Source: a virus (Duplodnaviria > Caudoviricetes). From it: a stretch of 35,985 bases of DNA. Below the pieces are notes generated by a model. It had not been told where the DNA came from and did no database searches. It worked only from the letters and a program-made list of their open reading frames with translations. Location of the stretch: the IMG/VR virus record IMGVR_UViG_3300033067_000400, positions 1 through 35,985 of that record, one strand, 5' to 3'. Of the stretch, positions 280 to 28,348 are shown in pieces (the first letter of the stretch is position 1; every line of letters starts with the position of its first letter). A program made the position numbers and the translations under genes.

Positions 280-707
280 AAGGCACCTTACACCGCAGGC
301 TCCGCGAGCTGCTTCGTGAAAGCCCAGAGCCGCTGAGCATTCTTGAACTCAGCAACCGCACAGGCGCGCCGTACACCAGCGTGCAGCGCTGCCTCTCTCA
401 AGTGATGGACGATGCCTACATCAAGGCGTGGTGCGTCCGCGCGGGCTACCGCCCCACCAAGCTGTGGGCCGTGGCGGTTGTGCCGCCCGATGCGCCCTTT
501 CCCAGTGACATCGCGCTGGGCCTGCCTGCTATTGAGCCGCGCACACGCCCAGCACCAAGACCGCCGCGTGCGCGCCCCGCACCAGAGGCGCTGCGCAAGA
601 AGCACAGCAAGCAGGTGCAAGAGTCCAAGGCGCGCAAGAAAGAGCGCGACACCCGCCCCGTGCAGGGTCTGACCGTCATCCGTGGACCGTGGCCGACCCA
701 TGCGTAA
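276..707 (+). CDS. Hypothetical protein with a putative N-terminal winged HTH and basic Pro-rich tail
   Basis: ATGA overlap with VRR-NUC. LSILELSNRTGAPYTSVQRCL resembles an HTH. Confidence 0.55.
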   Translation: MKGTLHRRLRELLRESPEPLSILELSNRTGAPYTSVQRCLSQVMDDAYIKAWCVRAGYRPTKLWAVAVVPPDAPFPSDIALGLPAIEPRTRPAPRPPRARPAPEALRKKHSKQVQESKARKKERDTRPVQGLTVIRGPWPTHA

Positions 708-2106
708 GCCCTTCACCCCCCGCCCCTACCAAAACATCGGCATGGCCCACCTTGCCAACGTCGAGCGCTGCGCGCTGTGGGCGGGCATGGGCATGGGTAA
801 GACCGTGACCACGCTCACCTTCTTGGACCACCTGCACAACTTGGCAGGCGAAGATCGGCCCACGCTCGTGCTCGCCCCCTTGCGCGTGGCGCGCACGACG
901 TGGCCCGAGGAGGTGACGAAGTGGGACCACCTCAGTGGCCTCGAGGTGGCGTCAGTCACGGGCGATGCCAAAGAGCGCGAGGCCGCACTCAAACGCGACG
1001 TGCCCGTGTACGCCATGAACTACGACAACATCGTGTGGCTGCGCGAGTGGTACGCCAAGAACAAAAAGGCATGGCCCTTCGCCACCGTGGTGGCGGACGA
1101 GTCGACCAAGCTCAAAGGCTTTCGCCTGCGCCAAGGTACCGTGCGTGCGCAGGCGCTCGCTGAGTTCGCGCACAGCGAGGTCGAGCGTTGGATCAATCTC
1201 ACGGGCACGCCCTCACCCAACGGCTTGGATGACCTGTGGGGGCAGACGTGGTTTCTCGATGCGGGCGTGCGCTTAGGGCGCACCTACAGCGCGTTTCAGA
1301 GCCGCTGGTTTCGCCCCAACAAGGGCTACCAGTTCACGAACTGGACGCCTGCTGAGCACGCGCAGGAGGAGATCCAAGAGAAGCTCGCCGACATCTGCCT
1401 CACCATCGACCCCGCTGACTGGTTCGACCTGCAAGCGCCCATCGTCAACGTGATCAAGGTCGACATGCCAAGCCGTGCGCGCAGCCTCTACCGCGACATG
1501 GAGAAGGACATGTTCATGGAGCTCGAGGCAGGCGTGGAGGTCGAGGCCTTCAGCGCTGGTGCCAAGAGCTCAAAGTGTTTGCAGATCGCCAGTGGTGCGG
1601 TTTACCTCGACGCTGAGCGCTACGGTGAGGGCGAATGGATAGAGGTGCACTTTGAAAAACTCGACGCTCTGGAATCGATTCTCAACGAAGCTGCGGGCGC
1701 GCCCGTGTTGGTGGCCTATCACTTCAAGTCGGACTTGGCGCGACTGCAGCGAGCATTTCCTAAAGGTCGGGTCTTGGACGCTGACCCGAACACGATACGG
1801 CAATGGAATAAGGGCGAGATACCTCTTCTGTTCGCCCACCCTGCAAGTGCTGGTCACGGCCTCAACCTGCAGGACGGAGGCAACATTATTGTTTTCTTCT
1901 CGCAGTGGTGGGACCTCGAGCAGCACGACCAAATCATCGAACGCATAGGCCCTGTGCGCCAGCTCCAAGCAGGCCACAACCGCCCCGTGTTCATCCACTA
2001 CATCGTGGCTCGCGACACCGTCGACGAGCTGGTGATGGCGCGACGCGAGACCAAGCGCGAAGTGCAAGACCTGTTACTTGACTACATGAAAGGAAAATCA
2101 AAATGA
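700..2106 (+). CDS. SNF2-family (SF2) DNA helicase
   Basis: PRPYQ Q-motif, MGMGKT Walker A, VVADES Walker B, LTGTP motif III, HPASAGHGLNLQ motif V, QIIERI motif VI. Start placed at ATG 700. Confidence 0.95.
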   Translation: MRKPFTPRPYQNIGMAHLANVERCALWAGMGMGKTVTTLTFLDHLHNLAGEDRPTLVLAPLRVARTTWPEEVTKWDHLSGLEVASVTGDAKEREAALKRDVPVYAMNYDNIVWLREWYAKNKKAWPFATVVADESTKLKGFRLRQGTVRAQALAEFAHSEVERWINLTGTPSPNGLDDLWGQTWFLDAGVRLGRTYSAFQSRWFRPNKGYQFTNWTPAEHAQEEIQEKLADICLTIDPADWFDLQAPIVNVIKVDMPSRARSLYRDMEKDMFMELEAGVEVEAFSAGAKSSKCLQIASGAVYLDAERYGEGEWIEVHFEKLDALESILNEAAGAPVLVAYHFKSDLARLQRAFPKGRVLDADPNTIRQWNKGEIPLLFAHPASAGHGLNLQDGGNIIVFFSQWWDLEQHDQIIERIGPVRQLQAGHNRPVFIHYIVARDTVDELVMARRETKREVQDLLLDYMKGKSK

Positions 2107-2396
2107 AAGTCTGTGACTGCGGCAAAAACGAGACCTGCCGCGAGTGCCTCCCGCCCGGTGGCTTCAAAGAGATGCCCAGCGCGTTGGACGTGCAGGTGGC
2201 AGGCGGCCACTACAAGACCAAGCGCATCCAGCCCGTGGAGTACATCGCGGCGAACAACCTCAACTTCCTCGAGGGCTGCGTGGTCAAGCGCATCACGCGC
2301 TGGCGCGACAAGAGTGCAGCCAACCGCTTCGAGGATCTCGAGAAGATCAAGCACGAGATCGACCTGTTGATCGAGATGGAGAAGCGCTATGGGTGA
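2103..2396 (+). CDS. DUF3310 (SaV / T7 gp1.7-like) protein
   Basis: QVAGGHYK..IQPVEYI..NNLNFLEG.VVK...RWRDK......EDLEK..H signature. Confidence 0.85.
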   Translation: MKVCDCGKNETCRECLPPGGFKEMPSALDVQVAGGHYKTKRIQPVEYIAANNLNFLEGCVVKRITRWRDKSAANRFEDLEKIKHEIDLLIEMEKRYG

Positions 2397-2598
2397 CTTC
2401 ATCGTGAAGGCGGTGGAGGCCTACATCCAAATGGAAAAAGACGCCCGCGTGATCGACCTCATGCGCAAGGACGTGATCAAGGGAGTGACCCGTCTGATCG
2501 GCGGGCAGTGGCGGGTCGACACGTCGGCGCAGTTCTTTGTGGCTGACAAGCTCGAGGAGGCGCTTGCCAAAGCGTTGGAGGCCGAGCGCAATGGATGA
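2389..2598 (+). CDS. Hypothetical protein
   Basis: Overlaps both neighbours in the operon and has typical codon usage. Confidence 0.6.
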   Translation: MGDFIVKAVEAYIQMEKDARVIDLMRKDVIKGVTRLIGGQWRVDTSAQFFVADKLEEALAKALEAERNG

Positions 2599-2776
2599 GG
2601 CGGACCGCGCCGCGCCCGAGATCGAGCGCGCGCTGGCCGAGGCGCTGCGCAACGTGTGCCTGCACGCGGATCTACCCGTGGGCGAGCAAGGCGAATGCGA
2701 CCTGTGCGGAGAGTGGTCGGGGCGCTTGATCGGTGGGGCCTGCGCGCCCTGCCGCGACAAGTACCACTTGCCGTGA
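2591..2776 (+). CDS. TraR/DksA-like C4 zinc-finger protein
   Basis: Starting at ATG 2591: MDEADRA acidic tip, a helix, then CDLC...CAPC. Confidence 0.75.
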   Translation: MDEADRAAPEIERALAEALRNVCLHADLPVGEQGECDLCGEWSGRLIGGACAPCRDKYHLP

Positions 2777-2797
2777 TTTGTCAAACGCAGAAGGCTC

Positions 2798-2851
2798 GTG
2801 CATCATGCACACAGCAGCGCGGGGCGTTATAGCAGCTGGTGCACGATGCAC
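2798..2851. promoter_or_regulatory. Two GTGCA-N3-TGCAC palindromes (putative operator or accessory sites)
   Basis: GTGCAtcaTGCAC at 2798-2810 and GTGCAcgaTGCAC at 2839-2851, 41 bp apart. Confidence 0.5.
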
Positions 2852-2883
2852 GGGTTAAGTGCCTGACCCAAAAGGGAACAGGC

Positions 2884-2911
2884 ATTTGACCAGTGATAGA
2901 TTATGCGAAGT
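2884..2911 (-). other. dif-like XerC/XerD recombination site (putative attP)
   Basis: Minus strand reads ACTTCGCATAA-TCTATC-ACTGGTCAAAT in 11-6-11 format. Against E. coli dif GGTGCGCATAA-TGTATA-TTATGTTAAAT it matches 8/11, 4/6 and 6/11. It is intergenic and next to a DUF3653 gene. Confidence 0.7.
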
Positions 2912-2957
2912 AGCGCCCCGTGTTGCCTTTATCGTCTGCTAAAGGTAGCCTTGGCAA

Positions 2958-3470
2958 ATGCTAACTCGCGAGATCGAAGACCTCATCGACAAGGCTGGCG
3001 GCGCTGGCTTTGTCATGCAGGCTTTAAACATCCACCGCACAACCCTCATGCGCTGGCGCACGGGCAAGGCGGTACCCAGTCAAGCCACCATCGATCTGCT
3101 GCGCGGGTTCGCAGGCACCAAGTTGCCGTGGGCTGACAAGAGCTGGACGGGCTGGCACTTCGACGGCAAATACCTGCGCGGGGATGAGGGGGAATGCTTC
3201 GAGGCGTGGGAGATGAAGGCGCACTGGATCACGGTCCAGATGGTGCCGATCCTGCAGCGCGAGAACGCCAAGCTGCGCGCGATGGTGGAAGGCCTCGCCA
3301 AGGACGTCAAAACGATCGACACGGCGGCCAATGATCTGACTGCATGGGAGGCAGACCCTCGGGCAATTAAAGCGCCCAGAGAGCCTGCCGTTGCCCCGAG
3401 GCCGGGGCTCAACAAACCCGAGCCCGAGGTTAGGCGAACGGGCGGCCGCCGGGGGTCGTGGAGTCGATGA
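2958..3470 (+). CDS. HTH + DUF3653 protein, XafT-like (putative Xer recombination activation factor)
   Basis: N-terminal HTH (VMQALNIHRTTLMRWRTGKAVP), then W.GW.F.G..L....G..F...E (DUF3653-like) and a coiled coil. Confidence 0.75.
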   Translation: MLTREIEDLIDKAGGAGFVMQALNIHRTTLMRWRTGKAVPSQATIDLLRGFAGTKLPWADKSWTGWHFDGKYLRGDEGECFEAWEMKAHWITVQMVPILQRENAKLRAMVEGLAKDVKTIDTAANDLTAWEADPRAIKAPREPAVAPRPGLNKPEPEVRRTGGRRGSWSR

Positions 3471-3912
3471 TCATCTTCGACTTCATCGGCACATCACCCT
3501 CGTGGGTGGTGATCGCCACGTGGGTCCAGCGATCGAACTCGCGGATGACCTGCTGATACGGCAGGTTGCTCGCAATGATGGCGCGCACCACTTGATCGGG
3601 CGTCATGCCCGGCACGCGGATGTCGGCCGCGCAGCCGCGACGGTGATCGCTGTGATCGCCCGAGCCCACGGCGGTGTTCACGTCGTGGCTGCGGAATGCG
3701 CTGTTGATGATGATCGGTTTGCCGCCCAGCAGCGCCTTGATCTGCTCGAGGAAGTTTGCCAAGCGCGGCAGGTTTGCCACTGCGTTGATCTCGACGTACT
3801 CGCCCCCGCGCTTGAGCTGGCAGCGCTCGCGCTCAGTGGGGGTGTTGTCCAACGTGCGGTGGTCGGTGTGGGTGAGCTCCTCGAGGGTGAAGTGAGGGGT
3901 GAGGTTGGTCAT
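3430..3912 (-). CDS. Endolysin, peptidase M15A family
   Basis: LTPHFTLEELT N-terminus and SAFRS...N..VG.....S.H..G.AADI...WTHV Zn-binding motifs. Confidence 0.9.
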   Translation of the reverse strand: MTNLTPHFTLEELTHTDHRTLDNTPTERERCQLKRGGEYVEINAVANLPRLANFLEQIKALLGGKPIIINSAFRSHDVNTAVGSGDHSDHRRGCAADIRVPGMTPDQVVRAIIASNLPYQQVIREFDRWTHVAITTHEGDVPMKSKMIIDSTTPGGRPFA

Positions 3913-11662: not shown

Positions 11663-14600
11663 TTATTCCTTGGGCGCGCCCAGCAGCAGCGCCATTGGGT
11701 TGGACGTCTTGCCCTCGTACATGGCGTTGAACCCCTCCACCGTGCGGTTGACTTGGCCCGCTGGGTAGTGGAAGAGAATGCCCGCCGCGTTGTTGAGGCG
11801 CTTGAGCAACGGCGCGTCGACCTCGCCCTGCTCCACTTGCTTGCCGAGCTTGGCAACTTCACTGAAAAAGCGCGTACCCGCTGGGCCTTCGTAGCCGTAG
11901 AAGCCGTTGATCGACGCGCCCAGTTCGCGCAAGCCAACCATCGTGCCGAGCAGGTAGTTGAGTTGTTCGCGGATGAGCTTCTCGATGAGCTTGTCATCGT
12001 CTTCGCCACCGCCCTTGAGCGCCTCTTTCATCGCGAAGCCAACCACGGCTGGCACCGTGTAGAGCATGAGCATGTCGACCATGAAGCGGCCAACTTGCAG
12101 CGGATCCTTGAAGCTCGTGGCGTTGTAGCGCTCGGCCGTCAGGTTGTAGGTCGTGCTGAAGTACGAGTAGAAGTTGGTGAAGAGCTTTTGCAGTGGGCCG
12201 CCGCGTTGCACGCGAGCGAGGTCCATGATCTGGCCGCCGCCTTGCGCATCGCGCACAGCTTGGTCAGCCTGCGCAATAGCGCCCGCCTCGTCCGCGCCTG
12301 CAGCGATCGACTTCTCGTACTGGCCCAGCCACGTGGGCAAGTCAGCGATCATCTGCGCCTTCTGGATCAGGTAGAAGTAGGTCTCCTTGACGGGGCCTGC
12401 CATCTCGCCTTGCACCTTGTTGCGGATCTCGTTGATCTCGCGCTGCATCGTTTCACCGCGCAGGCGCATGAAGTCAGACTTCGCGTACACCTCCTTGGCG
12501 GTGTTCTCCATGCGGGTCGCGTCGCCAATCCAGCGGGCCAAGCCCTTGCCGACCCACTTCGGCCCGACGCGCACGATGGACTGTGTAAGGCCCAGAGGCT
12601 GCATGAGCGAGGTCATGAGGTTCCAGCCCATGCCAGCGATCGTGGTACCCACGCGCAGGTGGTTGATGGCTGCCTCAAACTCAGACTGCGCAGGCACGTC
12701 ACCCGCAGCGATGTCCTCGAGCGCGCGCTTGAACTCGCGCAGCACTTCGTTGCCAGCGGTCTCGCGGATCGCCGACTCGATAGGGCCTGCGCGCAGGATG
12801 CGCGTGGCGTCGATGAGCCACTCGTGCCATGCCAAGTCGTGGATGACTTGGTCGACGTGTTGGAAGATCACGCCGAGGTCTTTGCGCACAGCGCGGTTGA
12901 CCGTGTCGACACGGCCCTTGGTGTGGCCGCGTCGTGTGGTGGCGCGCGTCATCTGGCCCAGCATCATTTGCTTGGTCAGTTCCGCAGCGGTTTGGCCTTC
13001 GGCCTTGCCAGAGCGGTCTGGGTCGTACTTGATCGGGTAGTAGCCGCCGCGCATTGGCACCACGGTGCCGTCTGCAGTGGTGACCGTGAACGCGCTGGCC
13101 TGCACCTTCTCAGGCGCCAAGCCGCTCACGCGCTCTTCTTTGGCCGAGATCTCAGGCCAGTAGGTGTTGATGTGGTCCCACGCCTTTTGCACGAAGTCGA
13201 GCTGCTCAGGCGTGAGCGTGGACAGGATCGCCTCGACCTGCGCCGAGCTCCACTTGTCGCCGTCCATCACGCGCTGGCGGTTGGCCTCGTTGCCCCAGTT
13301 CAAGGCCACGGCCAAGCGGGTCTCGAGCGAGAGGCTCATGTTGATCGCAGGGATGAACGCCATCGTCTTGAGCTTCTCGCCCTTGATGATGGGCTCGAAG
13401 ATCTTCGACAAGGCCTTGGTGGCCTTCTCGCGCATCACGGCTTCTTTGTCGCCTGCTGCGTTCATCGAGCGGTTGAACACCGTCCAGAACACGCCGCCGT
13501 CCTTCATGCCGTCGAACTGACGGATCAGGCTCGAGAGCTTGCGGTGCGAGCTGAAGAAGCCGCGCACTGCGTCGGTGGCCTTGTCTACCTTGGTGGGCGC
13601 GTTGATGCGCACAGGGCGCTCGCTCGTGGCGTTCTCGCGGATCGATGCCTCGAGGTCGGCGATGACAGCTGCGAATGCGCGCTTGTCCTGCAGCGTGAGC
13701 AGCTTGTCTTTGAGGCGGCCCAAGTGCTCGATGTTGCGCACTGTGTCAACTAAACCACGGAACTCCTCGAGCGTCATGTTCTTGTAAGAAACAAGCTGTA
13801 CGTCTTCGAGCAAGTAGTCGGGGATGTTGGGGTCGAGGCCGAGCTCCTGCTGGGCGGTGATCCACTCGGCGAGCTTGGCTCGCTTGTCGATCTCCTTGAG
13901 CGAGGTGCCACGGTGCAGCTCCACGCGCTCGAGCAGCTTGTCGATCTGAGCCATGTACTCAGGTGGCAGCTTGCTGCGCACGCTGTCCTTGTCGAACTTG
14001 CGCAGGTAGTCGAGCTTCTTGTCCACCTCGGCGAGCGCTTCGGTGGTGTACTTGGCCGCGTAGTGGTTCAAGAGCTGGTCGCGCTTAGCCGTGACCGCGC
14101 CTGTCGTGTCGCCCTCGGCCATCGCGCGCTCTGCCTTGAGCGCAGCGCGCGACTCGGCAGCGGTGTGTGCGCCTGCCTTGAGGTCACGCACTTTGCGTTG
14201 GGCGATCAGATTGCCCGCGAACTCCTTGGCAGCGGCCAACACCGCGTTGATCGTCTGCTTGTACTGCACCTTGGTCGTGGTGCCGTCCTGAGCCGTGCGG
14301 GTCGCGGTGATCGTCTTGCCTGTCTCCACGCGCACGTTCATCGCGTCTTGCAGGGCGCGCAGTTCGCTCGCCACAAAGCGGGCGCGGGCCTCGTTGTGCA
14401 CGGCCTCGTTGGCTGCGCGCTCGATGCCCTTGTCGGTTGCCAGATCGCCGTAGCGCTCGAGCAAGCGTTGGTCGGTCATGCCGTCGATGGTGGTGTCTTC
14501 AGGCATGGCGCCCACGATCGCGCGCACCATCTCGTCGCCGTTGGCAAAGCCGAAGAGCTCGGCCACCATGTTGGGGTGCAGGCCTGTGTCGGCTTCTTTG

Positions 14601-17600
14601 GTCACCATGTTGGTGGCGATGTAGCGCCAAGGGGCTGCAGGGCCTTCGCCGTACATCTCTTTGAGCACAGGCAGGGAGAGCTTGCCGCCCTCAACCTTGT
14701 TGCCCTCGAGCTCGCCGAACTTCAAGAAGCGCTGTACCGCGTACTCGGGCATGGCGCGCACTTCGGCGGTCACCTCTTCTTTGACCACCTTGCGCTTGTC
14801 GTTGATGTCGCGCTGCAGCTTGCTGAGCATCTTGCTGCGGGCGTTGACCACCCACTTCAAGTCACGCAGGCTGCGCGCCTGCAGCTGCTCGATGGCAGCC
14901 TCAGTGCCCTCGGCGCCTTGCTGTTGGTAGTTGACCCATTCCTCATCGGTCATGAAGTCGGGCTTGGTCTTGAACACGGGCGCGAAACCCGCCACGCGCT
15001 CGGCCTCTTTGATCTGCGCGTCGGTCGCCAGCATGCGGTCAAACACGCTGCGCACCTCGTCAGAGAGGTCGTTGTTGTAGCGCGCCATGAAGTCCTTGAG
15101 CGACTTGTAGACGCTGGTCAGGAACTGGCGGAAGCGCTGGAACAGGGGCTTGAGCTCGGCGCTTGGGGCCTTGCCCTCGAAGAGGTATTGCTCGAATGAC
15201 TCGGCAAACTTCTCGTGGTGTGGGCGCTTCTCGTCGAGCGTGTAGCCCATCCACGTCTGCGCGTCGGCAACGCCGAACCACTTGAGCAGCGCGTTCATGT
15301 CCTCGACGACATCCGCTGGCGCGCCCGGCTGGGTCGCGAGGTCGGCCATCACCTCGAGGAAGAAGTGGCCTGTCTCGTGCAGGAACGTAGAGAGATCTGC
15401 GTCTTTGAGCAGATCGATGCGCAGCTGGCTAGGGCTGAAGGTGCCGCGCTTAGGTTGTAAGACGGGCTGGCTTTGGTTGAGGACGTCGCTTTGAGGAGCG
15501 ACACCGAGCGCGCGCTGAACGGCGGCTCGGTCTTCGGGTGTTAATCCGAGGTTTGTGAGCTCGTTGTCGGAGAGGGCGGCAATGCCTTGGACAGTGCCCC
15601 GAGCGCGGGATGCGACAGGTGCTCCAGCACCAGCTCCTTGATCCCCTGCAGCTCCTCCGTTGTCGGCGCTGGCTGCTTCTGCATCCGCTGCGCGAGCAGT
15701 GTCTCGAAGCTCGCGCATTGTTGATCCGTCAGCGCCATCAGCTCGTCCTGCGAGAAGACCTGCGAGGCCGCCTCGGAGATAGCGGTTGATAATGTTTTGT
15801 CGATCGGCATCGGTGCCCTTCCATTTCATGATCACCAATGGCGGGTAGCCATCGGTTTCTGGATTGTACCCGGGGGTACTGTCCTGCCAGAATTTTATAG
15901 CATCTGCTAACTTCTGTGGCGAATAATACTGCGGATCGAAGGGGACTTCGGCCACTTTCTCGAAGCCAAACGCGGCGTACAGCGATGGCAGAAAACCGTC
16001 GGGGTACTTGGCGTTCTTGACCGCGAAGGCGTCCAACACCGTGGCGCCCTCTTGCAGCGCCTTGAGCACGACGGCAGGGCCGCCGATACCACGAGCGCCC
16101 GGCTCGTTGTTGATCACGGAGGTGAGCAGCACCTCGTTGTTGGTGATGCCGGGGGTCTCGATGCCGTAGTCGGCCGCGTAGCCGGGGTCGCCCTTCTTGA
16201 GCGCGAAGAAGATCTGCCCGTCAGCGCCGAGCTGGTAGATCTTCATCGACTTGTCTTTGATCGCCTTCTTGACCTGTGGCAGCGTGTACTCGCTCAGCGC
16301 CACCTTGGCGGGCGAGTTGTCGATCGCGTCGAGGAACTCTTGAGGCGACACGCCGCCTTGCTTCACGGCGTCGTCCGAGGTGCTCCAGTTATCCGCAGCG
16401 AAGTCGGCGGCCAAGCGGGCTTGGCGTGCGCTCTCGATGTTGTCTTGCTTGATCGGACCGATGCGGTCGATCAGATCCTGCGTCACTTTGACGATCGGCT
16501 TGGAGAGCTCGAAGGCGCGGCGTGGGGAGTCCTTGTCGCTGTTCTCAGCGAGCCAGTCCTGCCACAGCAGCTGCCAGTTGATGGCTGCCTCGAGCTTGCC
16601 TACGACCTTGCCGCGCACGCCCACGGGGAAGTCTGGGTGCGCGGTCGTACCTTGCGTGCCGAGCTCGACTTGTGGGCTCTCTTGGTCCACCTCGACCAAC
16701 AGGACGCCGTCGCCCCAACGGTGACCTGCAAGGCTGGGCTCGCGGGTGGCGTCGAGGATTCGGTTCATGGGCGGTGCGCCCAGCTCGAGCGCTTGCTTGG
16801 ACGCCATGATCTCGAGCACGCGCTTGCGTGCGTCAAACGAGATGCCATCCATGTAGGTGTGCATCGTGTCGTGGTCGTCGAAGCCGGGGAAGTAGGTCAG
16901 GTACTCCTTGACCTTGCTGGCCTTGGCGCCTGCGCCTTCCATCTTCTCGCCCGTGGTGCGCACGAGGTCGCCCAGCGCCTTGACGTTCTCAGGGGAGATG
17001 CGGCCATCACGGGCCCACGCCTCGAGCGTAGCCATGAAGGCAGCGGCCACGGTGCTGTTGGACTGGTGCATGTTTGCGTCACCCATCACCACCAGCATGT
17101 AGTTGGCGCCAGCCTTGAGCTTGGCAGCCTTCTGGGCGATCACGCCCTTGCCACGGTTGGCCCACACGATGCCAGCCTGCACGTTGCTCTCGCGCAACGG
17201 GAAGAGCGGGCCGCCCAGCAGCGGGATCGCAACGCTCACGCCCGAGGCGTCGATGCCCGTGTACAGCGCAGCGGCAGCGGTACGGTCGGCGATCGTAGGG
17301 AACACGTCGAAGCCGAGCATGTCCTGCAGCGTGATGATCGGCACGTCCTTGCTGTCGATCAGCTGATCGATCTGCATGACGTCCTGCACTTCGCCGCCCG
17401 CGTCGGTGATCGCCTGCTCGAGGTTCTGCACCTGCTGCGCGTAGCTCTGGTTCATCACATCTGGCCCCATCGTGGGGGCCGTGTTGAACACCGACTTGAC
17501 TTGGTTGGGGTTGTAGATGGCGAGGTTTTTCTTGCGCGCCTCTTTCACGTAGAAGCCGTCAAAGCCTGCTGCCTTGATGGCCGCCTGCGTCGTGGGTTTC

Positions 17601-20185
17601 TCGATCTCTTCCCAGTTGCCTGACTCGAGGTAAGGCTTGGACTTGTCGCCACGCGGCTCGCCCCACGAGTTGGTGTTCTTGTTGAGCTCGGCCACCACGG
17701 CAGCGATGTGCTCGGGGTTGTCGTAGTCGAACGGATTCTGCGCACTGACGTACAGCGGCATGATGTTGGGGCCCGAGGCCATTTGATCGGCCAGTGCCTT
17801 GGTGAACTCGCTACGCACAACGGCGTTGAGCACGGTCTCGCGCATGCGCATGCGGTGCACCAACACGTCGACCTTATCGGGGTCTTCGTTCGCCAACTTC
17901 GAGCGGATACCCGCTTCGGCGTTGTCCAACGCGATGGCGATTTTGTCCTCGGAGAGCAGCTCCTCGTAGTTCTCGACCATCCAGTCTTTGCTCATCTCCG
18001 AGAAGTCCTCGGCAAAGCTCGGGTCTTCGGTCACGAAGATGGCGCCAGCTTGCTTGGCGCGGAACACGGAGATGTCTTGCGCTGTGCCGTGGTACATGCG
18101 CTTGGGCGTGCCGTCGGCATTGGTGATCTGGCTGTTGCCAAACCACGCAGCGAACTCGGGCGTGCCTGTGCGCAGCTGACCTGTCTGGTCATACTGGTCG
18201 TATTGGCCTGCCTCGAGGGACACGCCCTCGGCGCGCACGGTGAGCGGATAACGCTCGTACATCTGCTCAGGCGTCATACCTGTGCGCTCGCTCATCACGG
18301 TGTAGAAGTCGCGCACGAGGCTCGCGTAGCCGTCGTTGACGTCAGCGGTGAAGCGCCCACCAGCGGTGAGTTGCTCGAGCACTTTGCCTTTGACCACCTC
18401 GGCGCTGGCCGCCACAGCAGTAGCGTCGCTGGCCTCGGCCACGACGGTCTTTGCCATCTGTTGCAGGTACTCGCCTGCAAGCTCGCTGGCTTGCTGCGCT
18501 TCGATCTGGCTCAGGCCGTCTTCGGTTGCGCGCAGGTGTGGCAGCAACGCGGTCTCGAGACCCGTGCCAACAACGTGGCCCGTGAACTCGCCGATCGGGA
18601 TAGCGATCGACTCGCCTGCTTCAGAGGCGCGCTGCAGGTTGTCGGCCACGCTGGGCACGCGGCCCATGAACTCGATGACATCGAAGCCAGACTGGTCGAG
18701 GGTCTCCACCAGCGTGCGCGCGTCGATGTAGACCTCGGTGAGCGCACCTTCGGTCTGGTCGGCCACGCTCTGCACGAACTGAGCGAACGTGTCGGGCGCG
18801 CGCTCGCGCAGCTTGGAGGCTGTGGCGAGCTGCACGATCTGGGTGAGCTTGGCGAACTGCTCTTGCGAGTCGCGCACTTTCGCTGCGTCGCTGGTGAGCT
18901 TGCGCGCACCGCTTGTGACAGCAGCCCATGCCACGTCGGTAGGGGCGCCAAAGCCCTCGCCTACGGCCTCGAGGAAGAGCTCAGCGGGGCTTGCTGTCTC
19001 ACCGACAGCGGCAGCAGCTGCAGCAGCGCCTGTGGCGCCTGCGGTGCCTTGCTTGACCACCTCGCCTGCGATGTTGCCGACCTTGCTCGCAAACGATGCG
19101 CCCTTGCCACCGCCGGGCACAGGGATGAATGCGAAGGCTGCGTTGACGCCGCCCTCGGTCAGTGCCTTGGTGCTGGCGTATTCCCACGCAGCCTCGAACG
19201 GCTGGCCTTCGGCAATCTTTTGCGCGATCTCGCCCGCGAGCGTTGGGCCGTAGTTGCCCGTGAAGTTGACGCCTGCCATCGTGGTGGCGCCAGCGATGTA
19301 CTGGGCGAACTTCTGGCTTGCGATGCGTGTGGCGATCGCGTCGCCCACAGCGCCACCTGCTACGCCACCGATCGGTGCGAAGGGCGCGGCCTGCACGCCC
19401 ATCTCGATCATGAAGTTGACGGCGGCATCGGGGTTGCGCACGATGTAGCCCAACGCGTCGATCGCGCCGTTGACGCCCTTGTCGTTGTTGTAGGCCTGCT
19501 CGTAGATCTTGCCTGCGATGTCGAGGCGCTTGTCACGTGGCAGGGACGCGTAGAGGTTCGCCACGTCGGTGAGCGAGCTCTTGGCGGTTTGGTTGGATGC
19601 GTCCACAGGCCCGCTTGGGGCAAGCCCCATCGGACCCTTCTTTGGCTCAGGCAGGAACGTGGTGCCGATGGATGTCAGCAGCTCGTCGACCTTGAGCGCG
19701 GCGGCATCGCCAAACACGCCCAGCGCGGTGATGCCGCGCTTGAACGCAGCGCCCATCGAGTCGTCTTGCTTGCCGGGCATGCGCTGCACAGCAAGCGCTT
19801 GGTCGGCCTTCTTCGAGAAGTCGAGGCCGCGCTCCCAGCTTGCGAGGTTGCCTGTGTCATCCTTACTCAGGTTGAACAGGTCGGTGTTCTTGACGAGCTC
19901 AGCGGCAGCCTTCGGCGAAAGCTGCTCGAGCGTTGACCAGTCGGGCTCATTTGCCAGATCCGCTGCCTTCGCGGGGTTGTTCTGCACCGTGGGCATGGGC
20001 AGCCCCGTAGTGCGTGACAGCTTGCGCGCGTTGGCGAAGTCGTCAGGCTTTACCGTCTGCTGACGGTAGAGGGAACGTAGGGTGTCGGCATTCGTATCTG
20101 GCAAAAAATCCAGAGAGGAACCAACATTCTCACGCGCTACACCACTAGGAGTTGCAGACTTATCGGGAAGGTTGTTGAGATCCAT
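11663..20185 (-). CDS. Giant internal virion/ejection protein of polyvalent type (ART-like, GNAT-like and HExxH zincin-like domains)
   Basis: 2840 aa at the gp16-equivalent position. Motifs: FAAWFGNS...MYHGT...IFVT...MPLYV...GFDGF (ART-PolyVal-like); LDAF...FLPSLYAAFGF (GNAT-like); ADLSTFLHETGH...HEKFA (zincin-like). Confidence 0.8.
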   Translation of the reverse strand: MDLNNLPDKSATPSGVARENVGSSLDFLPDTNADTLRSLYRQQTVKPDDFANARKLSRTTGLPMPTVQNNPAKAADLANEPDWSTLEQLSPKAAAELVKNTDLFNLSKDDTGNLASWERGLDFSKKADQALAVQRMPGKQDDSMGAAFKRGITALGVFGDAAALKVDELLTSIGTTFLPEPKKGPMGLAPSGPVDASNQTAKSSLTDVANLYASLPRDKRLDIAGKIYEQAYNNDKGVNGAIDALGYIVRNPDAAVNFMIEMGVQAAPFAPIGGVAGGAVGDAIATRIASQKFAQYIAGATTMAGVNFTGNYGPTLAGEIAQKIAEGQPFEAAWEYASTKALTEGGVNAAFAFIPVPGGGKGASFASKVGNIAGEVVKQGTAGATGAAAAAAAVGETASPAELFLEAVGEGFGAPTDVAWAAVTSGARKLTSDAAKVRDSQEQFAKLTQIVQLATASKLRERAPDTFAQFVQSVADQTEGALTEVYIDARTLVETLDQSGFDVIEFMGRVPSVADNLQRASEAGESIAIPIGEFTGHVVGTGLETALLPHLRATEDGLSQIEAQQASELAGEYLQQMAKTVVAEASDATAVAASAEVVKGKVLEQLTAGGRFTADVNDGYASLVRDFYTVMSERTGMTPEQMYERYPLTVRAEGVSLEAGQYDQYDQTGQLRTGTPEFAAWFGNSQITNADGTPKRMYHGTAQDISVFRAKQAGAIFVTEDPSFAEDFSEMSKDWMVENYEELLSEDKIAIALDNAEAGIRSKLANEDPDKVDVLVHRMRMRETVLNAVVRSEFTKALADQMASGPNIMPLYVSAQNPFDYDNPEHIAAVVAELNKNTNSWGEPRGDKSKPYLESGNWEEIEKPTTQAAIKAAGFDGFYVKEARKKNLAIYNPNQVKSVFNTAPTMGPDVMNQSYAQQVQNLEQAITDAGGEVQDVMQIDQLIDSKDVPIITLQDMLGFDVFPTIADRTAAAALYTGIDASGVSVAIPLLGGPLFPLRESNVQAGIVWANRGKGVIAQKAAKLKAGANYMLVVMGDANMHQSNSTVAAAFMATLEAWARDGRISPENVKALGDLVRTTGEKMEGAGAKASKVKEYLTYFPGFDDHDTMHTYMDGISFDARKRVLEIMASKQALELGAPPMNRILDATREPSLAGHRWGDGVLLVEVDQESPQVELGTQGTTAHPDFPVGVRGKVVGKLEAAINWQLLWQDWLAENSDKDSPRRAFELSKPIVKVTQDLIDRIGPIKQDNIESARQARLAADFAADNWSTSDDAVKQGGVSPQEFLDAIDNSPAKVALSEYTLPQVKKAIKDKSMKIYQLGADGQIFFALKKGDPGYAADYGIETPGITNNEVLLTSVINNEPGARGIGGPAVVLKALQEGATVLDAFAVKNAKYPDGFLPSLYAAFGFEKVAEVPFDPQYYSPQKLADAIKFWQDSTPGYNPETDGYPPLVIMKWKGTDADRQNIINRYLRGGLAGLLAGRADGADGSTMRELRDTARAADAEAASADNGGAAGDQGAGAGAPVASRARGTVQGIAALSDNELTNLGLTPEDRAAVQRALGVAPQSDVLNQSQPVLQPKRGTFSPSQLRIDLLKDADLSTFLHETGHFFLEVMADLATQPGAPADVVEDMNALLKWFGVADAQTWMGYTLDEKRPHHEKFAESFEQYLFEGKAPSAELKPLFQRFRQFLTSVYKSLKDFMARYNNDLSDEVRSVFDRMLATDAQIKEAERVAGFAPVFKTKPDFMTDEEWVNYQQQGAEGTEAAIEQLQARSLRDLKWVVNARSKMLSKLQRDINDKRKVVKEEVTAEVRAMPEYAVQRFLKFGELEGNKVEGGKLSLPVLKEMYGEGPAAPWRYIATNMVTKEADTGLHPNMVAELFGFANGDEMVRAIVGAMPEDTTIDGMTDQRLLERYGDLATDKGIERAANEAVHNEARARFVASELRALQDAMNVRVETGKTITATRTAQDGTTTKVQYKQTINAVLAAAKEFAGNLIAQRKVRDLKAGAHTAAESRAALKAERAMAEGDTTGAVTAKRDQLLNHYAAKYTTEALAEVDKKLDYLRKFDKDSVRSKLPPEYMAQIDKLLERVELHRGTSLKEIDKRAKLAEWITAQQELGLDPNIPDYLLEDVQLVSYKNMTLEEFRGLVDTVRNIEHLGRLKDKLLTLQDKRAFAAVIADLEASIRENATSERPVRINAPTKVDKATDAVRGFFSSHRKLSSLIRQFDGMKDGGVFWTVFNRSMNAAGDKEAVMREKATKALSKIFEPIIKGEKLKTMAFIPAINMSLSLETRLAVALNWGNEANRQRVMDGDKWSSAQVEAILSTLTPEQLDFVQKAWDHINTYWPEISAKEERVSGLAPEKVQASAFTVTTADGTVVPMRGGYYPIKYDPDRSGKAEGQTAAELTKQMMLGQMTRATTRRGHTKGRVDTVNRAVRKDLGVIFQHVDQVIHDLAWHEWLIDATRILRAGPIESAIRETAGNEVLREFKRALEDIAAGDVPAQSEFEAAINHLRVGTTIAGMGWNLMTSLMQPLGLTQSIVRVGPKWVGKGLARWIGDATRMENTAKEVYAKSDFMRLRGETMQREINEIRNKVQGEMAGPVKETYFYLIQKAQMIADLPTWLGQYEKSIAAGADEAGAIAQADQAVRDAQGGGQIMDLARVQRGGPLQKLFTNFYSYFSTTYNLTAERYNATSFKDPLQVGRFMVDMLMLYTVPAVVGFAMKEALKGGGEDDDKLIEKLIREQLNYLLGTMVGLRELGASINGFYGYEGPAGTRFFSEVAKLGKQVEQGEVDAPLLKRLNNAAGILFHYPAGQVNRTVEGFNAMYEGKTSNPMALLLGAPKE

Positions 20186-21833
20186 CGCTTGGTGAGCCTT
20201 TCAGTTGCTGAATCACGGCGTTGATGTTCGCGGGCGTGATGGGTTTGTTGTTCTGTTTAAGGATCGCGTAAGCGGCTGCCCGCGTACCGTTGATTGGCTC
20301 GTTTCTCGCGCTGAACCAGCGGTTCGCGTCGAGGAAGTAGTTGGTGTAAAAGTCGTCCGCTGCCGAGGCGCCAGTTGGCACAGCTGCGTTTGACTTCTTC
20401 AGGAGTGTAAGGGCGCCGTCGACGTCGCCTTTGTTGGCCTCTGGGGTCTTGATGACAAAGTCCTTGCGGCCCTTCGTGCGTGCCTCCCCAAACGTGTCTG
20501 GGTCGTTACGGAACATGCTGTCGTCTTTGCCGTAGCCCGACATGAACCATCGGTCAGCCAAGGCTTCGACGTCTTCGGGGCGCTTTTTCTCGCGCACATC
20601 GTCTTGGATGTACTTCTTGAAGGCGATCCACTGCTTGGCTTTGGATTCGTCCTTGATCCACTTCGCGCGGGTCTCACCCGTGCGCTCGCTGTAGACGCGC
20701 TCCATCTCCTTCTCGGAGATCTCACCGCGCTTGTCGAACGACTTGCGCAGCGTGCGGAATGTCTCTGGGCGCAGGAATGGCGCGTAGCGATCGAGGTCGC
20801 GCTCGCTCTGAATGTCGCCTTGTTGGATGGCTTTCTCCGCCATGTCGAGGGCTTCGTAGTTGTCCTCTTTGGCGTGCAGGCGACCGTCTTTGGCCTCGGC
20901 CTTGGCAAGCGCCTTGAAGTAGCCGCCTACCTCTTTGACGGCCTTCTCAGGGTTCATCATCTTGAGGTCGACTGCGCTTGGTTCTTTGCCGTCACGGATG
21001 GCGGCCCACACGCGTTTCTCGGCGGCGCTCTCGTTTGCGCTCACCGCAGCTTTGGCCTTGGCTTCAAAGCGGATGCGTGCGTTCTCGATGCTGTCTTTGA
21101 TGGCGTCGCGGCGCGTGCCGTCGAACTCATCGGTGGGCACCGAGGCAAAATACTTCTCAGCGGCAGCAGGGTTCTTGTCGGCCATCTGTTGGATGACGCT
21201 CGTGTGCAAGATCGTCATGTCCTTGAGGTTGGCGACCTTGAGCTGGTCAGCGTCCCAGCCTTTGCGCGCACCTTGGTAGGCGTTCTTGTCCTTGATCTGG
21301 GCGATGCCGCTTGTGATGTTGTCGGCCGTGGGGTTGGTGGCCGTGTCACTGATGATCACAGCCTTGCTCGCCTGCCAGCTCTCGTCGTGCGACTTCTCGA
21401 GCTGCATGTCTTGGTACTGCGCCATGTGCGCAGAGCTTTGCAGCTTCAAGCGCGAAGCAGACTTTGCGAGCAACGCGCGCTGGCGGTCGTTCAAGTTCTC
21501 GGTGAACTTGGTCTCAGCGTCTGACCACCACTTGTCGTTGTCATCCACCACGCCTTCGGCGTAGCGCCCTTGGCGTGACTTCTTGACATCGGTCTCGAAC
21601 TTGAGGTACTCAGCGCGCAGGTTGGTCTCGGCGCGGAAGACGATGTCTGCGTCTTCACGTTGCTGCTTTTGCTCGAGCATCACGGACACTCGGGCGGCGG
21701 CGTTCGCCACGTCACCGAGCTGGCGCGCTTCAACGCCGCCAAAGGCCGCGTCGGATTTTGCGTATTCTTGGAAGCCACCCTGCAGGGGGGCTTGCCTTAC
21801 TTGAGCGCCGTCATAGACTGGGATTGTTGCCAT
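20160..21833 (-). CDS. Internal virion (ejection) protein, gp15-equivalent
   Basis: 557-aa helical protein starting MATIPVY, between the gp14-like and giant proteins. Confidence 0.7.
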   Translation of the reverse strand: MATIPVYDGAQVRQAPLQGGFQEYAKSDAAFGGVEARQLGDVANAAARVSVMLEQKQQREDADIVFRAETNLRAEYLKFETDVKKSRQGRYAEGVVDDNDKWWSDAETKFTENLNDRQRALLAKSASRLKLQSSAHMAQYQDMQLEKSHDESWQASKAVIISDTATNPTADNITSGIAQIKDKNAYQGARKGWDADQLKVANLKDMTILHTSVIQQMADKNPAAAEKYFASVPTDEFDGTRRDAIKDSIENARIRFEAKAKAAVSANESAAEKRVWAAIRDGKEPSAVDLKMMNPEKAVKEVGGYFKALAKAEAKDGRLHAKEDNYEALDMAEKAIQQGDIQSERDLDRYAPFLRPETFRTLRKSFDKRGEISEKEMERVYSERTGETRAKWIKDESKAKQWIAFKKYIQDDVREKKRPEDVEALADRWFMSGYGKDDSMFRNDPDTFGEARTKGRKDFVIKTPEANKGDVDGALTLLKKSNAAVPTGASAADDFYTNYFLDANRWFSARNEPINGTRAAAYAILKQNNKPITPANINAVIQQLKGSPSDGSQQPSR

Positions 21834-21836
21834 GTG

Positions 21837-22421
21837 TTACCACCCCACCGATGATGGTGTCGCCTTGAGACCCACGCCGCCCGTCGAGCCAGAGCCGAAC
21901 ACGCTCCACTTGTCTGACACGCCAGTCGTGCCAGTCTTGCCCATGAGTGAAGCGCTTGCGTAGGTGCTCGCGCCTGCTGCAGCGGCAGAGAGCAGCGGGC
22001 TCTCGGAGTCCGCAGCGTTTTGGTACATCGTGGATTCGGTCAGGAAGTTGGCGGCCTGCGCCTTCTTGGCATAGGCCTCTTTGCCTGCGTTGCCACGGAT
22101 GGTGCCTTGGTCCACCTTGCTGAAGTAGTCGGTCTGGTCGAGCAGGGACAGCGCTGTGCCCTCGCCTAAGTCGAGGCCGCGCGCAGCCATCGTGGCGCGC
22201 TGGTCACTTTTGATCGCAGCGGCCTTGCGGCGTGCGTTGATCGCGTCCACCTCGCCGCGTTGCACGGCGTCTTCGGCTTGGTATTCGGCCATCTTCGCGT
22301 TGTTGCGTGCGATGACGGCGTTGTACTCACCCTGCTCCTTGCGAGCCTCAGACTGCTGATAGGCAGACGTAGCAGCGAGCGTAGCAGCAATGTATGCAGC
22401 GGTTACTGGGTCGAGGCACAT
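21837..22421 (-). CDS. Internal virion protein, gp14-equivalent
   Basis: MC start, Ala/Gln-rich, QRA.MAA.G.DL..G.AL motif. Confidence 0.75.
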   Translation of the reverse strand: MCLDPVTAAYIAATLAATSAYQQSEARKEQGEYNAVIARNNAKMAEYQAEDAVQRGEVDAINARRKAAAIKSDQRATMAARGLDLGEGTALSLLDQTDYFSKVDQGTIRGNAGKEAYAKKAQAANFLTESTMYQNAADSESPLLSAAAAGASTYASASLMGKTGTTGVSDKWSVFGSGSTGGVGLKATPSSVGW

Positions 22422-22423
22422 GG

Positions 22424-22885
22424 TTACGCTTTCATCTCGAACGGGTGGAATGGCAAGTCGGCGCGGCCATACGGCATTGGGTCCATCACGTTAAAACCTG
22501 CGCGCTTGAGCCAGCGAATGGCTTTGGTGTTGCGCGCGTCAACGAGGTTGAACAAATGCGGATAGGCCTCCAACATGAGAGGAATGTAGATCAGCGTTTG
22601 TTTGATAAACGCACCCGCGTGGCGCGCCACGGCGTCGCTGCCCAAGAGCCACGGGCAGCCGATGCCGCCGAGGATCGACACGGGAGTCACGCCCATCAAG
22701 CAGGCGAGCTCGTCATCGATCTCGACGGCCCACGAATGAGTCGAGGAGGCGACGCAGCGGGTTAGTGCGTCAACGGGCGCCCGCCCGTTTACAGCCTCTA
22801 TCTCATCGAGATCGGCTTGGCGTAGGCGTGGGGCGAGCTCCTCGGCGTCGCCCGGCTGTACCGAGCGCACGAGGACCTTAGCCAC
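22424..22885 (-). CDS. GNAT-fold protein (DUF2833 / T7 gp13-like)
   Basis: LRQADLDEIEA...PWLLGS...L.NLVDARNTKAIRWLKRAGF. Confidence 0.85.
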   Translation of the reverse strand: MAKVLVRSVQPGDAEELAPRLRQADLDEIEAVNGRAPVDALTRCVASSTHSWAVEIDDELACLMGVTPVSILGGIGCPWLLGSDAVARHAGAFIKQTLIYIPLMLEAYPHLFNLVDARNTKAIRWLKRAGFNVMDPMPYGRADLPFHPFEMKA

Positions 22886-24926: not shown

Positions 24927-25552
24927 GAGCGGAAACTCATCATGCCCGGCACTTGGATGCCGACAGCGTTTTCGATCGTGATGGGCACCGCGCCGTGGGT
25001 CTCGGAGCTGCGGTTGGCGTCACCTGCGGAAGCCGAGCGGGTCTCGGCCACAGCGCGCTCGCGCAGCTTGATGGCCGCGTTGGCGCCCTCGTTGCCTTTG
25101 ATGATGGGGCCTGCCAAGTAGGAGGCGATCATCCAGCTCAGCGCGGAGATGAACTCGGGTGTGTATTTGGTGGTGTCAGTGATGTCGCGGGTGTAGACCA
25201 GCGTGGCCTCGGCCTCGTTGGTGTAGATCACTCCGCCCTCGATGGTGAACGAGGCGCCGTCTTGCTCGTTGGTGGCACCAGCCTTGAGCACGCGGTAGGG
25301 TTTGATGCAGTCGGCGGGTTGCGAGTAGGCAAACAACCACACGACGCTGTTGTTGGCGACCTCTGCGAGCTGTGCGCGCTTGGTGGCGAATGACCACTGC
25401 GCCAGCGAGATCGTGAGCTTGCGGGCAAGCGGGTAGTAGCGGGCACAGTAGCCCGACTCCGCGCTGCCGTCAGGAGGCGAAATAGACGCGATGTTCGCGT
25501 CGGAACCAATGTGGCCCAAGGCCAGATTACAAATTTCGACGGCGTTTGCCAC
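24923..25552 (-). CDS. Tail tubular protein A (adaptor)
   Basis: VEICNLALGHIG...WSFATKR..L...W.FAYSQPADC. Confidence 0.9.
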   Translation of the reverse strand: MANAVEICNLALGHIGSDANIASISPPDGSAESGYCARYYPLARKLTISLAQWSFATKRAQLAEVANNSVVWLFAYSQPADCIKPYRVLKAGATNEQDGASFTIEGGVIYTNEAEATLVYTRDITDTTKYTPEFISALSWMIASYLAGPIIKGNEGANAAIKLRERAVAETRSASAGDANRSSETHGAVPITIENAVGIQVPGMMSFRS

Positions 25553-25574
25553 GGCTTCTCTCCAATCCTTACGA

Positions 25575-25599
25575 ACAGGGCCGCTCGTGGCGGCCCTGT
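25575..25599 (-). terminator. Hairpin after the capsid genes (probably a leaky terminator)
   Basis: Perfect 10-bp stem ACAGGGCCGC/GCGGCCCTGT with a 5-nt loop and only a weak U-tail. Confidence 0.65.
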
Positions 25600-26330: not shown

Positions 26331-27326
26331 TTAGGAGATCGCGGCTTCTGTGTTCAACAGAGCGTCAGTGCGCTTGAACGGGATACCGTCGAAGCTCAAC
26401 ACTTTCTTGCCAGCCACATCGTCCATAGTCAATGTAGAGCCAGCGACCTTGTTCGCGATTTGGCGACGCAAGAAGCTAGTGATGGTGCGGTTCGCGTAGA
26501 ACACAGCGCGGCCCATGTTGAGGTTAGGTGGAATTTCCACAGCTTGGCTCAACAAGTCGATCAAGTCGGCGCCAGAGGCAGCGTTCTTGGTCAAGTCGCT
26601 GATGTCGATGTTCGCGATGCGAACGACATAGCGCCAGTCGCGCAAGGTCACGCCGCAGTCCCACTTGTAGTGAGTGCGGTAGCCTTGGTAGCGGCCGCCA
26701 GCAGCGTCGAGCAATGTCTCTTCGCCGAGGTCTTGCACGTCCAAACCAGCCTTAGAGCCTTTTGGATAGATGCCGTGGATGGTGTTGTCACCCCACACGA
26801 CCAAGTAGATCGATGTGTTGTCGGAGCCAGAGCCGCCACCCAACAGGATGTTCTCGCCGTTTTCGACGCCAGACTTTTGGCTGTAGCGAGCGGCCAAGCC
26901 AGTGAACTTCTCGGGGTCGAGAGAGCTGTCACCGTAGAACAAGGTGCTTGCCATTGTCTGGTTCATGCCTTCGATGAAGGCGCGGTCTTCAGACAGACGG
27001 AATGCAGCTTCGTTGCCGTTCAACTTCACCAAAGCCTTATCGACTTCAGCGTAGCTTTCCAGCATGCCGCAGGTGTCAGTGACTTGCACGGTGGTGCTCT
27101 TCTCAGGTTGCACACCGTAGTTCAGCTTGCGCCAAGTACCAGTTGGCAAGCCAGAGCGGATGGTCGTCTTGTGACCTGTGGGCAGGTTACCTTCGACCCA
27201 GCTCATGTCTTCCAAGATGGGGTTGGTTTGATTCAGGAGCTCGATAACTTTCGAGACCGAACCATCGGGATCCATACGCGTTGCCAAGTCGGCGAGCGTA
27301 GGCATGAATGTATTGAGAGTTGCCAT
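26331..27326 (-). CDS. Major capsid protein (BPP-1 Bbp17-like)
   Basis: TLAD...R.DP....IELL.QTN.IL.D....EGNLPTGH.TT.R.GLP..TWRKLN.GV...LRDWRYVVRIANID; strongly biased codon usage. Confidence 0.92.
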   Translation of the reverse strand: MATLNTFMPTLADLATRMDPDGSVSKVIELLNQTNPILEDMSWVEGNLPTGHKTTIRSGLPTGTWRKLNYGVQPEKSTTVQVTDTCGMLESYAEVDKALVKLNGNEAAFRLSEDRAFIEGMNQTMASTLFYGDSSLDPEKFTGLAARYSQKSGVENGENILLGGGSGSDNTSIYLVVWGDNTIHGIYPKGSKAGLDVQDLGEETLLDAAGGRYQGYRTHYKWDCGVTLRDWRYVVRIANIDISDLTKNAASGADLIDLLSQAVEIPPNLNMGRAVFYANRTITSFLRRQIANKVAGSTLTMDDVAGKKVLSFDGIPFKRTDALLNTEAAIS

Positions 27327-28347: not shown

Positions 28348-28348
28348 G

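Follow-up and report, generated by a model that had tools for sequence, protein, structure and literature searches.

A dif-like attachment site and a distant XafT relative in the integrase slot of a BPP-1-like podophage

Xer-dependent modules and the podophage locus

In TLC-phi of Vibrio cholerae, attP is a double-stranded dif-like site with a good XerC arm and a poor XerD arm that keeps G5 (PMC6744903, PMC9226527), and an HTH-DUF3653 gene, XafT (VC1465), lies on the XerC side of this site in an element without a recombinase of its own (PMC6744903). XafT has been described as letting dif recombine with nearly any attP that keeps base 1 or 5 of the XerD arm (PMC9226527). The XafT-type modules on record belong to a satellite, to inoviruses and to double jelly-roll phages. 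In Vibrio, dif-type double jelly-roll prophages and CTX-I inoviruses carry a dif/XafT lysogeny module by their lysis genes, which is reported to consist of P15/XafT, P16/RstR and a dif-like attP, to alternate with an integrase module at one and the same location and to move between phage groups (PMC12715192). XafV, a structural relative of XafT whose gene also adjoins attP, has been associated with XerC-started reactions (bioRxiv 10.64898/2026.06.12.731946). A DUF3653 domain with the W-x-G-F/W-x-F motif is likewise found in PSB15 of Xanthomonas filamentous phages, but this protein lacks an HTH fusion, attaches to a packaging signal in single-stranded DNA and is described as dispensable for integration (bioRxiv 10.1101/2024.03.19.585677), so a DUF3653 domain by itself need not mean Xer activation.

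A preliminary description of the locus studied here held that elements of this kind (IMEX) are mostly non-tailed. This stands, yet a short-tailed (T7-like) temperate phage of Legionella, LME-1, has already been published that enters the host dif via host Xer (PMC9765430, PMC12407071), and because this short-tailed phage counts as an IMEX of the XerL/dif type, tailed IMEX as such have a precedent. Unlike the locus described below, LME-1 relies on a single recombinase, XerL, and on a near-identical att site, the accessible text of these papers reports no XafT-like gene (PMC9765430, PMC12407071), and the 2022 paper leaves open whether the phage encodes an activator (PMC9765430). Our literature search, which covered the main texts of largely open-access papers, found neither an XafT-like gene paired with a XerCD-type attP nor Xer cassette arrays reported for any tailed phage; the supplement of PMC6744903 holds 179 DUF3653 proteins, which may include tailed-phage entries.

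The present locus lies in a 35,985-base piece of a podophage genome, which makes up the whole record and is called the window here. It encodes capsid, portal, terminase, T7-like internal and tail proteins, a primase and an SNF2 helicase, and its major capsid protein, portal and terminase identify it as a tailed podophage. Kinship to BPP-1 (Rauchvirus) rests on capsid identity and on gene order, which the window mirrors. The genes needed for this comparison are:

703..2396, plus strand: genes for an SNF2 helicase and DUF3310, which also stand ahead of xis-int-attP in BPP-1
2591..2776, plus strand: DksA/TraR-like zinc-finger gene, left neighbour of the site-gene block
3430..3912, minus strand: peptidase M15 endolysin, with which the converging late arm ends
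26331..27326, minus strand: major capsid protein, 71% identical to the capsid of Bordetella phage BPP-1
28847-30532: portal, part of the podophage gene set
30753-32291: terminase, part of the podophage gene set

In BPP-1, xis, int and attP come after the helicase gene and bbp48 and before the lysis genes, whereas in the window the helicase, DUF3310 and zinc-finger genes are followed by a dif-like site, an XafT-like gene and the endolysin, and the two gene arms converge at this site-gene block. BPP-1 and its kin share with the window the position of att at the arm junction after the helicase and DUF3310 genes, as the preliminary description had stated for BPP-1-type phages, and BPP-1 differs in carrying xis, a tyrosine integrase and an attP that matches His-tRNA. 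TLC-phi is a small satellite of filamentous phages and the Vibrio double jelly-roll and CTX-I systems are non-tailed, while the module here sits in a lytic-cycle podophage whose complete relatives measure 42-46 kb. About 7 kb are missing from the window contig, and the immunity, exonuclease and polymerase region of BPP-1 is absent from it. The relatives aligned to the stretch come from public freshwater or wastewater metagenome runs. Elsewhere in the window, a minus-strand gene at 11663-20185 encodes a polyvalent virion protein of 2840 aa that carries LPD22 and ART-PolyVal domains, and repeated TGTAACCC/GGGTTACA motifs at 33430-33650, by the end of the primase gene, are perhaps an origin or a primase-binding region.

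No integrase-like gene was found in the window among 385 six-frame ORFs or in the 33 ORFs scanned, as previously noted, and because the contig is without about 7 kb the lack of an integrase in the phage's own genome is not proven by this. Among related records, a tyrosine integrase (PF00589) was found in none of 15, 7 of them complete, with control profiles matched in 12-14 of 14 genomes, and BPP-1 int/xis had no match in six complete relatives. BPP-1 synteny, conservation of the module, the seven integrase-free complete relatives (7/7) and the clean absence of the block from close relatives together support the proposal that int/attP has been replaced by a dif-like site and an XafT-like gene.

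The dif-like site and the XafT-like gene

The two components of the block and the parts of the site are:

2884..2911, minus strand: dif-like attachment site (predicted attP), recognised by its sequence, a dif weight matrix, and the same place and orientation in relatives
2911-2901, minus strand: XerC-type arm, good and intact
2900-2895, minus strand: centre of the site, TCTATC
2894-2884, minus strand: degenerate XerD-type arm, with G kept at position 5
2958..3470, plus strand: HTH-DUF3653 (XafT-like) gene, recognised by profiles, homologues, the ESM Atlas and a structure model

The minus strand at 2884-2911 reads ACTTCGCATAA TCTATC ACTGGTCAAAT, an 11-6-11 layout. On a weight matrix built from 21 chromosomal dif sites this 28-mer scored 20.5 bits, against -1.3 for the runner-up position, and none of 200 shuffles in two-base blocks equalled it (best shuffle 13.2); the window contains no second dif-like site. 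All four inner bases of the XerD arm depart from the dif consensus, to which bases 5-11 conform, and the site thus has the arms of the TLC type, that is, a good XerC arm and a degenerate XerD arm with G5 or T1, here G5. Both the 28-bp site and the four degenerate base pairs of its XerD arm had been read correctly in the preliminary description. The centre has two differences from the commonest dif centre, TGTATA, which the preliminary description passes over, and shares 5 of 6 bases with the best candidate host dif, TCTATA, the mismatch adjoining the XerD arm. A strain that is 96% alike (32 differences in 851 bases) has no change listed inside the 28 bases, an outcome that luck would give about one time in three and that is weak evidence of conservation. 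The exact window site had no match in IMG/VR. A pattern of the window-type XerC arm plus operator gave 12 matches, all due to chance, and contigs of run X24 that break at 2882-2920 have no loose ends, which made them unusable as a junction.

The plus-strand ORF at 2958-3470 encodes 170 aa and its ATG begins 46 bases past the 28-mer. A structure model of the protein (mean pLDDT 86.8) has a four-helix HTH (2-51), three short strands (67-82), a long helix (83-124), an AAND motif and an unstructured tail; the model, the Atlas and the position of the gene by the XerC arm agree with the architecture of XafT, an XRE-type HTH fused to DUF3653. The position and architecture attributed earlier to this HTH-DUF3653 gene therefore stand, but the family cut-offs are missed: the profile search that had been proposed gave a weak match to DUF3653 (PF12375; E 0.0098, 16.5 bits against a cut-off of 22.4) and a sub-threshold one to the NCBIfam VC1465 (XafT) family NF040522 (E 1.1e-5, 25.4 bits, cut-off 70). 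The 12 proteins from this phage group that were scored on NF040522 all stayed under 70 bits, the best at 63.9. Homologues numbered 73 among cluster representatives plus 2 by word search, and DUF3653 homology is supported despite the missed cut-off because the two closest distinct homologues (50-55% identical) reach 42-44 bits and 49 of the 74 homologues scanned (hand count; 74 of 75 found) pass. The ESM Atlas placed the protein with DUF3653 clusters by features (0.93) and with VC1465 clusters by structure (TM 0.55-0.63). Taken together, profiles and model predict that the product of 2958-3470 is a distant HTH-DUF3653/XafT relative.

At the C-terminus, an A(A/S)N(D/E) motif is present in 37 of 50 aligned proteins; this end presumably resembles the SspB-binding part of the ssrA tag and hints that the XafT-like protein may be short-lived. 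A co-fold of two phage proteins (residues 1-125, 50-row alignment) with the XerD of genome G788 (2-row alignment) gave a score of 0.01, which speaks neither for nor against a contact. Direct searches of IMG/VR with the window protein or P0003, and of GenBank phages with the window protein or a relative, returned no match, and neither a solved structure of a relative nor an RNA family was found. The PHROG 1668 label 'tail assembly protein' (E 0.004) was set aside, since position and fold suit a regulator.

It could be argued that the window site has decayed and that the gene encodes a transcription regulator or another DNA-binding protein without a role in recombination. The off-consensus centre, the family scores below threshold and the precedent of PSB15 all speak for such a reading, but the XerC arm is intact and the same as in candidate hosts, the 28 bases carry no listed change in the 96%-alike strain (the weak, one-in-three observation given above), and gene and site move as one block, and we regard this possibility as highly improbable.

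Four further elements surround the site:

2778..2806, plus strand: promoter-like site P1, TTGTCA-17-CATCAT (promoter scan: 1 found, 0.2 expected)
2798..2810, no strand: palindrome GTGCA-N3-TGCAC, which overlaps the P1 -10 and lies 86 bases away from the XerD arm
2923..2951, plus strand: possible promoter P2, TTGCCT-17-TAGCCT, read by eye and omitted by the promoter scan
2928..2943, no strand: predicted repressor operator, palindrome TNTAGCA-NN-TGCTAAA with two mismatches, in the spacer of the XafT-like promoter

P2 stops 6 bases short of the XafT-like ATG, which lies 12 bases past a TGCTAAAGG motif in 28 of 32 sites. In all or most of six complete genomes, TNTAGCA-NN-TGCTAAA occurs in the cI/cro region, after the polymerase gene and in the XafT-like promoter spacer, and in one complete genome (G001) it stands between a repressor-like gene (phrog_12107, E 6e-15) and a small divergent gene opposite. 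These positions suggest that the palindrome is bound by the phage repressor, whose operator likely covers the promoter of the XafT-like gene. The locus would differ in this respect from TLC-phi, since it combines a cI/cro-type switch with a predicted operator over the activator promoter and a distant protein (25 bits vs 70 on the XafT family), and from the double jelly-roll and CTX-I systems, in which the repressor is within the module and not far away as here (PMC12715192). Further operator copies were seen inside the large virion gene of the window (15896-15911, two mismatches) and, with one mismatch, within the late regions of G006 and G008.

P1 faces the att site from the XerD side. The palindrome over its -10 has a second copy at 2839-2851, and in 29 of 32 sites GTGCA-N3-TGCAC is found no more than 260 bases away from the XerD arm, usually at -85/-86, with L007, L094 and L102 lacking it; exact copies exist nowhere else, be it in the window, six complete relatives or BPP-1. 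The contig of one close relative (L001:6188-6253) stops past the palindrome, about 20 bases short of the expected att start. Such conserved palindromes could be accessory elements, which we take to be comparable to those at cer or psi, and they bear on the suggestion that a plasmid prophage resolves its dimers via host Xer at the site, with the XafT-like protein instead of FtsK. That suggestion, which the preliminary description had kept as its alternative, would also suit the missing integrase and the fact that the free form alone has been observed. It has lost ground, since neither a ParA-type ATPase (PF13614) nor a serine resolvase (PF00239) was found in 5/5 complete relatives (one partition family searched), the module fills the int/attP slot and homologous bacterial genes are mostly situated at chromosomal dif; we consider it very unlikely.

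Related phages, site arrays and chromosomal homologues

A related helicase was encoded at 389 IMG/VR loci; in the best 80 of them, the XafT-like gene was downstream in 6, and 5 of these 6 had a dif-like site 45-60 bases ahead of the gene with the XerC arm facing it; L033 had the gene without the site. A DNA pattern that combined the dif centre with a portion of the XerC arm and a 9-base motif close to the start codon, and that used no protein input, matched 31 stretches on 30 viral contigs, all with the helicase or DUF3310 gene of the group, and the XafT-like gene was on 28 of the 30, L098 and L109 having the site without it. Two further patterns matched 24 and 41 stretches, mostly overlapping, with the gene within 2.5 kb in 33 of the 41. 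The module was found in this way in about 50 related podophage records, and the site, whose conservation beside homologues had been named earlier as a test, keeps the same place and orientation in related phages. The patterns fixed the centre and the inner XerC arm, so agreement there proves nothing; the XerD arm was free in two patterns and partly fixed in one, which contributed two further records, both with arm types already known. The 20 distinct first XerD arms from 51 records have G5 in 19 and G5 or T1 in 20, a pyrimidine at position 7 in 20 and T4 in 18, and they match dif at position 6 in 1 and at position 11 in 2. All 20 distinct arms, judged by their sequence, obey the published XafT arm rule, but XerD arms of shared ancestry amount to one strong pattern and not to 20 independent tests.

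The helicase tree has site-bearing phages on at least 5 branches, interspersed with integrase-bearing ones; the integrase labels are rough, coming from a four-sequence profile that missed many, and two labelled loci upstream of the helicase were omitted. In L004, the closest IMG/VR relative (helicase 83% identical), the zinc-finger gene is joined directly to the endolysin, and a 43.4-kb contig whose left side is about 97% alike skips 2714-3462. The block at 2777-3462 is thus missing in close relatives, and its clean absence means that site and gene are gained or lost as a unit. Site and gene form a real, mobile lysogeny-type module.

The mismatch beside the XerD arm of the window centre would hinder XerD strand exchange under the homology rule for tyrosine recombinases, and therefore either the true host has a different centre or a XerC-first route is used. 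Under the latter, the phage would integrate at dif as VGJ-phi/XafV or CTX-phi do, with the junction resolved by replication, and the gene would boost XerC or be a regulator only; we judge this route, and that role for the gene, unlikely. The agreement of the window centre with a TCTATA dif on the XerC side and its difference beside the XerD arm fit it, as does XafV, the structural relative of XafT that acts on XerC-started reactions and whose gene adjoins attP (bioRxiv 10.64898/2026.06.12.731946). On the other hand, the centres of the relatives equal the commonest dif at 6/6 bases, partly because the patterns fixed them, and the relatives keep G5, the XafT/XerD signature. A lytic tailed prophage also requires clean excision, which the XerC-only route is not known to yield.

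Two to three sites in direct repeat, 598-1438 bases apart, were present in 10 of 50 related loci (L082, L085, L087, L106, L108, L109, L292, L298, L318 and L320), two of which share an identical cassette; the window carries one site. Each array unit has a promoter-operator head and a shared tail of 130-170 bases, and the cargo, a single gene per cassette, includes DNA methyltransferases, a Rv2179c-like exonuclease and a Vut transporter plus a phrog_887 gene. The overlap of this tail with the operator gives many cargo proteins an AKAA ending. The first site of an array has the usual phage XerD arm and later sites a different one (the same in 10 of 13), an order that would be expected if a phage sat at dif, a small element entered the working dif beside it and both were excised jointly. 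Stacking at dif and joint excision have been described for TLC-phi and CTX-phi (PMC6744903).

The order of the arrays also fits direct capture by a free phage. In that case the phage would stay off the chromosome and use the site to capture and drop cassettes, or to resolve dimers of circular DNA, during lytic growth. The site-bounded cargo and shared cassette ends in 10 of 50 relatives, the finding of no prophage in the genomes searched and the persistence of close relatives without the block are in its favour. Against it, direct capture would join partners whose XerD arms are both poor, while stacking always pairs a poor arm with a good host arm; the site centres copy chromosomal dif, and a repressor switch without integrase or partition genes requires some lysogenic state. 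We consider an existence off the chromosome quite unlikely. Cassette DNA had no match in the chromosomal loci examined.

Homologues of the gene were located at 54 bacterial chromosome loci, 38 with a dif-like site immediately upstream whose inner XerD arm is canonical and 16 without any. The XerC arm points toward the gene in 25 of those 38 sites, the orientation predicted for a prophage end, and is reversed in 13, one of them doubtful. Profile searches matched 6/201, 20/401, 27/401, 9/141 and 1/38 genomes in overlapping samples, and portal or capsid genes of the phage group were present in 2/24 and 1/26 such genomes, never beside the homologue. In G769, a related capsid region is on a different contig from a weak homologue and the two are unlinked. 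The chromosomal homologue loci look like small elements. A poor XerD arm like that of the window was seen in G137; G180, G668, G873 and G672 have no G5. Tiny elements of 0.8-2 kb at chromosomal dif, namely L152 (G180:C1:1474429-1477644), L145 (G137:C205:310-1173) and L180-L184, hold little beyond the XafT-like gene between dif and a poor-arm site, and in G180 two 1.6-kb units stand in tandem.

A prophage of this group at dif was found neither in pattern scans nor in sampled genomes nor in IMG/VR records with the commonest arms. Junction patterns had 7 matches in GTDB and 4 in metagenome contigs; the gene accompanied none of these, and they are chance or plain dif sites. The absence of junctions is weak evidence, because samples held one genome per species and many were fragmented. 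Every viral record is a free form, whereas prophages at dif have been shown for the double jelly-roll and CTX-I systems (PMC12715192). Lysogeny at chromosomal dif, proposed in the preliminary description, remains the best explanation, but the genomes searched yielded no prophage junction or hybrid site, and the arrays of the relatives lend it indirect support.

In a sample of 401 genomes from the order of G165, with 80 sites with a canonical inner XerD arm, the dif centre was TGTATA in 50, TCTATA in 2 and TCTATC in 0 (hand count, leaving out 10 non-dif matches and genome G988). The family of G165 is an unlikely host for its atypical XerC arm, which at its dif-like sites (L158-L172, with XafT-like genes adjoining) ends in ACGA and not ATAA. 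Among 13 dif loci of the genus of G788 (38 genomes), the centre was TCTATA in 6, the exact XerC arm of the window was present in 5 and a XerD arm ending GTCAAAT in 12, and on these sequence matches the genus is a candidate host of the window phage. No related prophage or spacer was found in the genus, nor any related prophage DNA when window positions 16000-35985 were compared with its 38 genomes. A 30-base match in the candidate host G1040 is inside a coding gene and not in a CRISPR array. The dif centres of the G788 genus vary (TCTATA, TCCGTA, TCCATA, TCCTTA, TACTTA and TCAGCA in L245-L257), which could reflect escape from dif-targeting elements. The site at L279:287-314 (G1027:C178), near the contig start and at the end of a repressor-like ORF, has the centre TCTATA and a poor XerD arm that keeps T1 and G5; it is another element using the dif centre of the G788 genus.

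Probable lysogeny at dif and its meaning

Integration at dif by one Xer route or the other is quite likely in our view, and host XerC and XerD probably insert the phage at dif with the XafT-like protein as a predicted activator, in the manner of TLC-phi. Neither the rank of a proven IMEX for the element nor a place for its protein in the curated XafT family can be claimed yet. The XafT-like protein would be made from the circularised genome; XerC would bind the good arm and XerD would engage the poor arm with the help of the phage protein and free of FtsK, a step modelled on the action of XafT for TLC-phi. After a single crossover, the helicase arm would adjoin a poor hybrid site that joins the XerC arm of the host to the XerD arm of the phage, and next to the XafT-like gene there would be a working dif with its XerC arm from the phage and its XerD arm from the host. 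The reversible reaction would then halt through the repressor on its operator and through the separation of P1 from the gene by integration. Induction would free the gene and the prophage would excise, sometimes with small elements stacked at the same dif, a joint excision that would produce the site-cargo-site arrays of the relatives.

More tentatively, since the joint claim is somewhat more doubtful than probable, a widespread group of BPP-1-like phages may have exchanged its integrase on several branches for a repressor-controlled XafT-like activator plus a TLC-type attP and become dif-integrating phages that use host XerCD and are fed with cargo by an integron-like cassette pump, in which the centre names the host and the GTGCA-N3-TGCAC palindrome is a binding site that fixes the direction. 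Small promoter-bearing cassettes with shared ends would stack beside the prophage and leave with it, and a housekeeping recombinase of the host would thereby supply methyltransferases and other cargo to tailed phages.

If true, integrase-less tailed phages that are labelled virulent can be temperate, and a 28-base site with a small gene would flag temperate phages and indicate their host. Dozens of natural activator-site pairs would become available for studying FtsK-independent XerD switching, and a repressor operator together with a promoter severed by integration would give direction to a reversible reaction, a point left open by the XafT paper. With the cassette arrays, tailed phages would have a new way of acquiring genes, and the strategy of activating XerD would reach full-size tailed phages, beyond small satellites and tailless phages.
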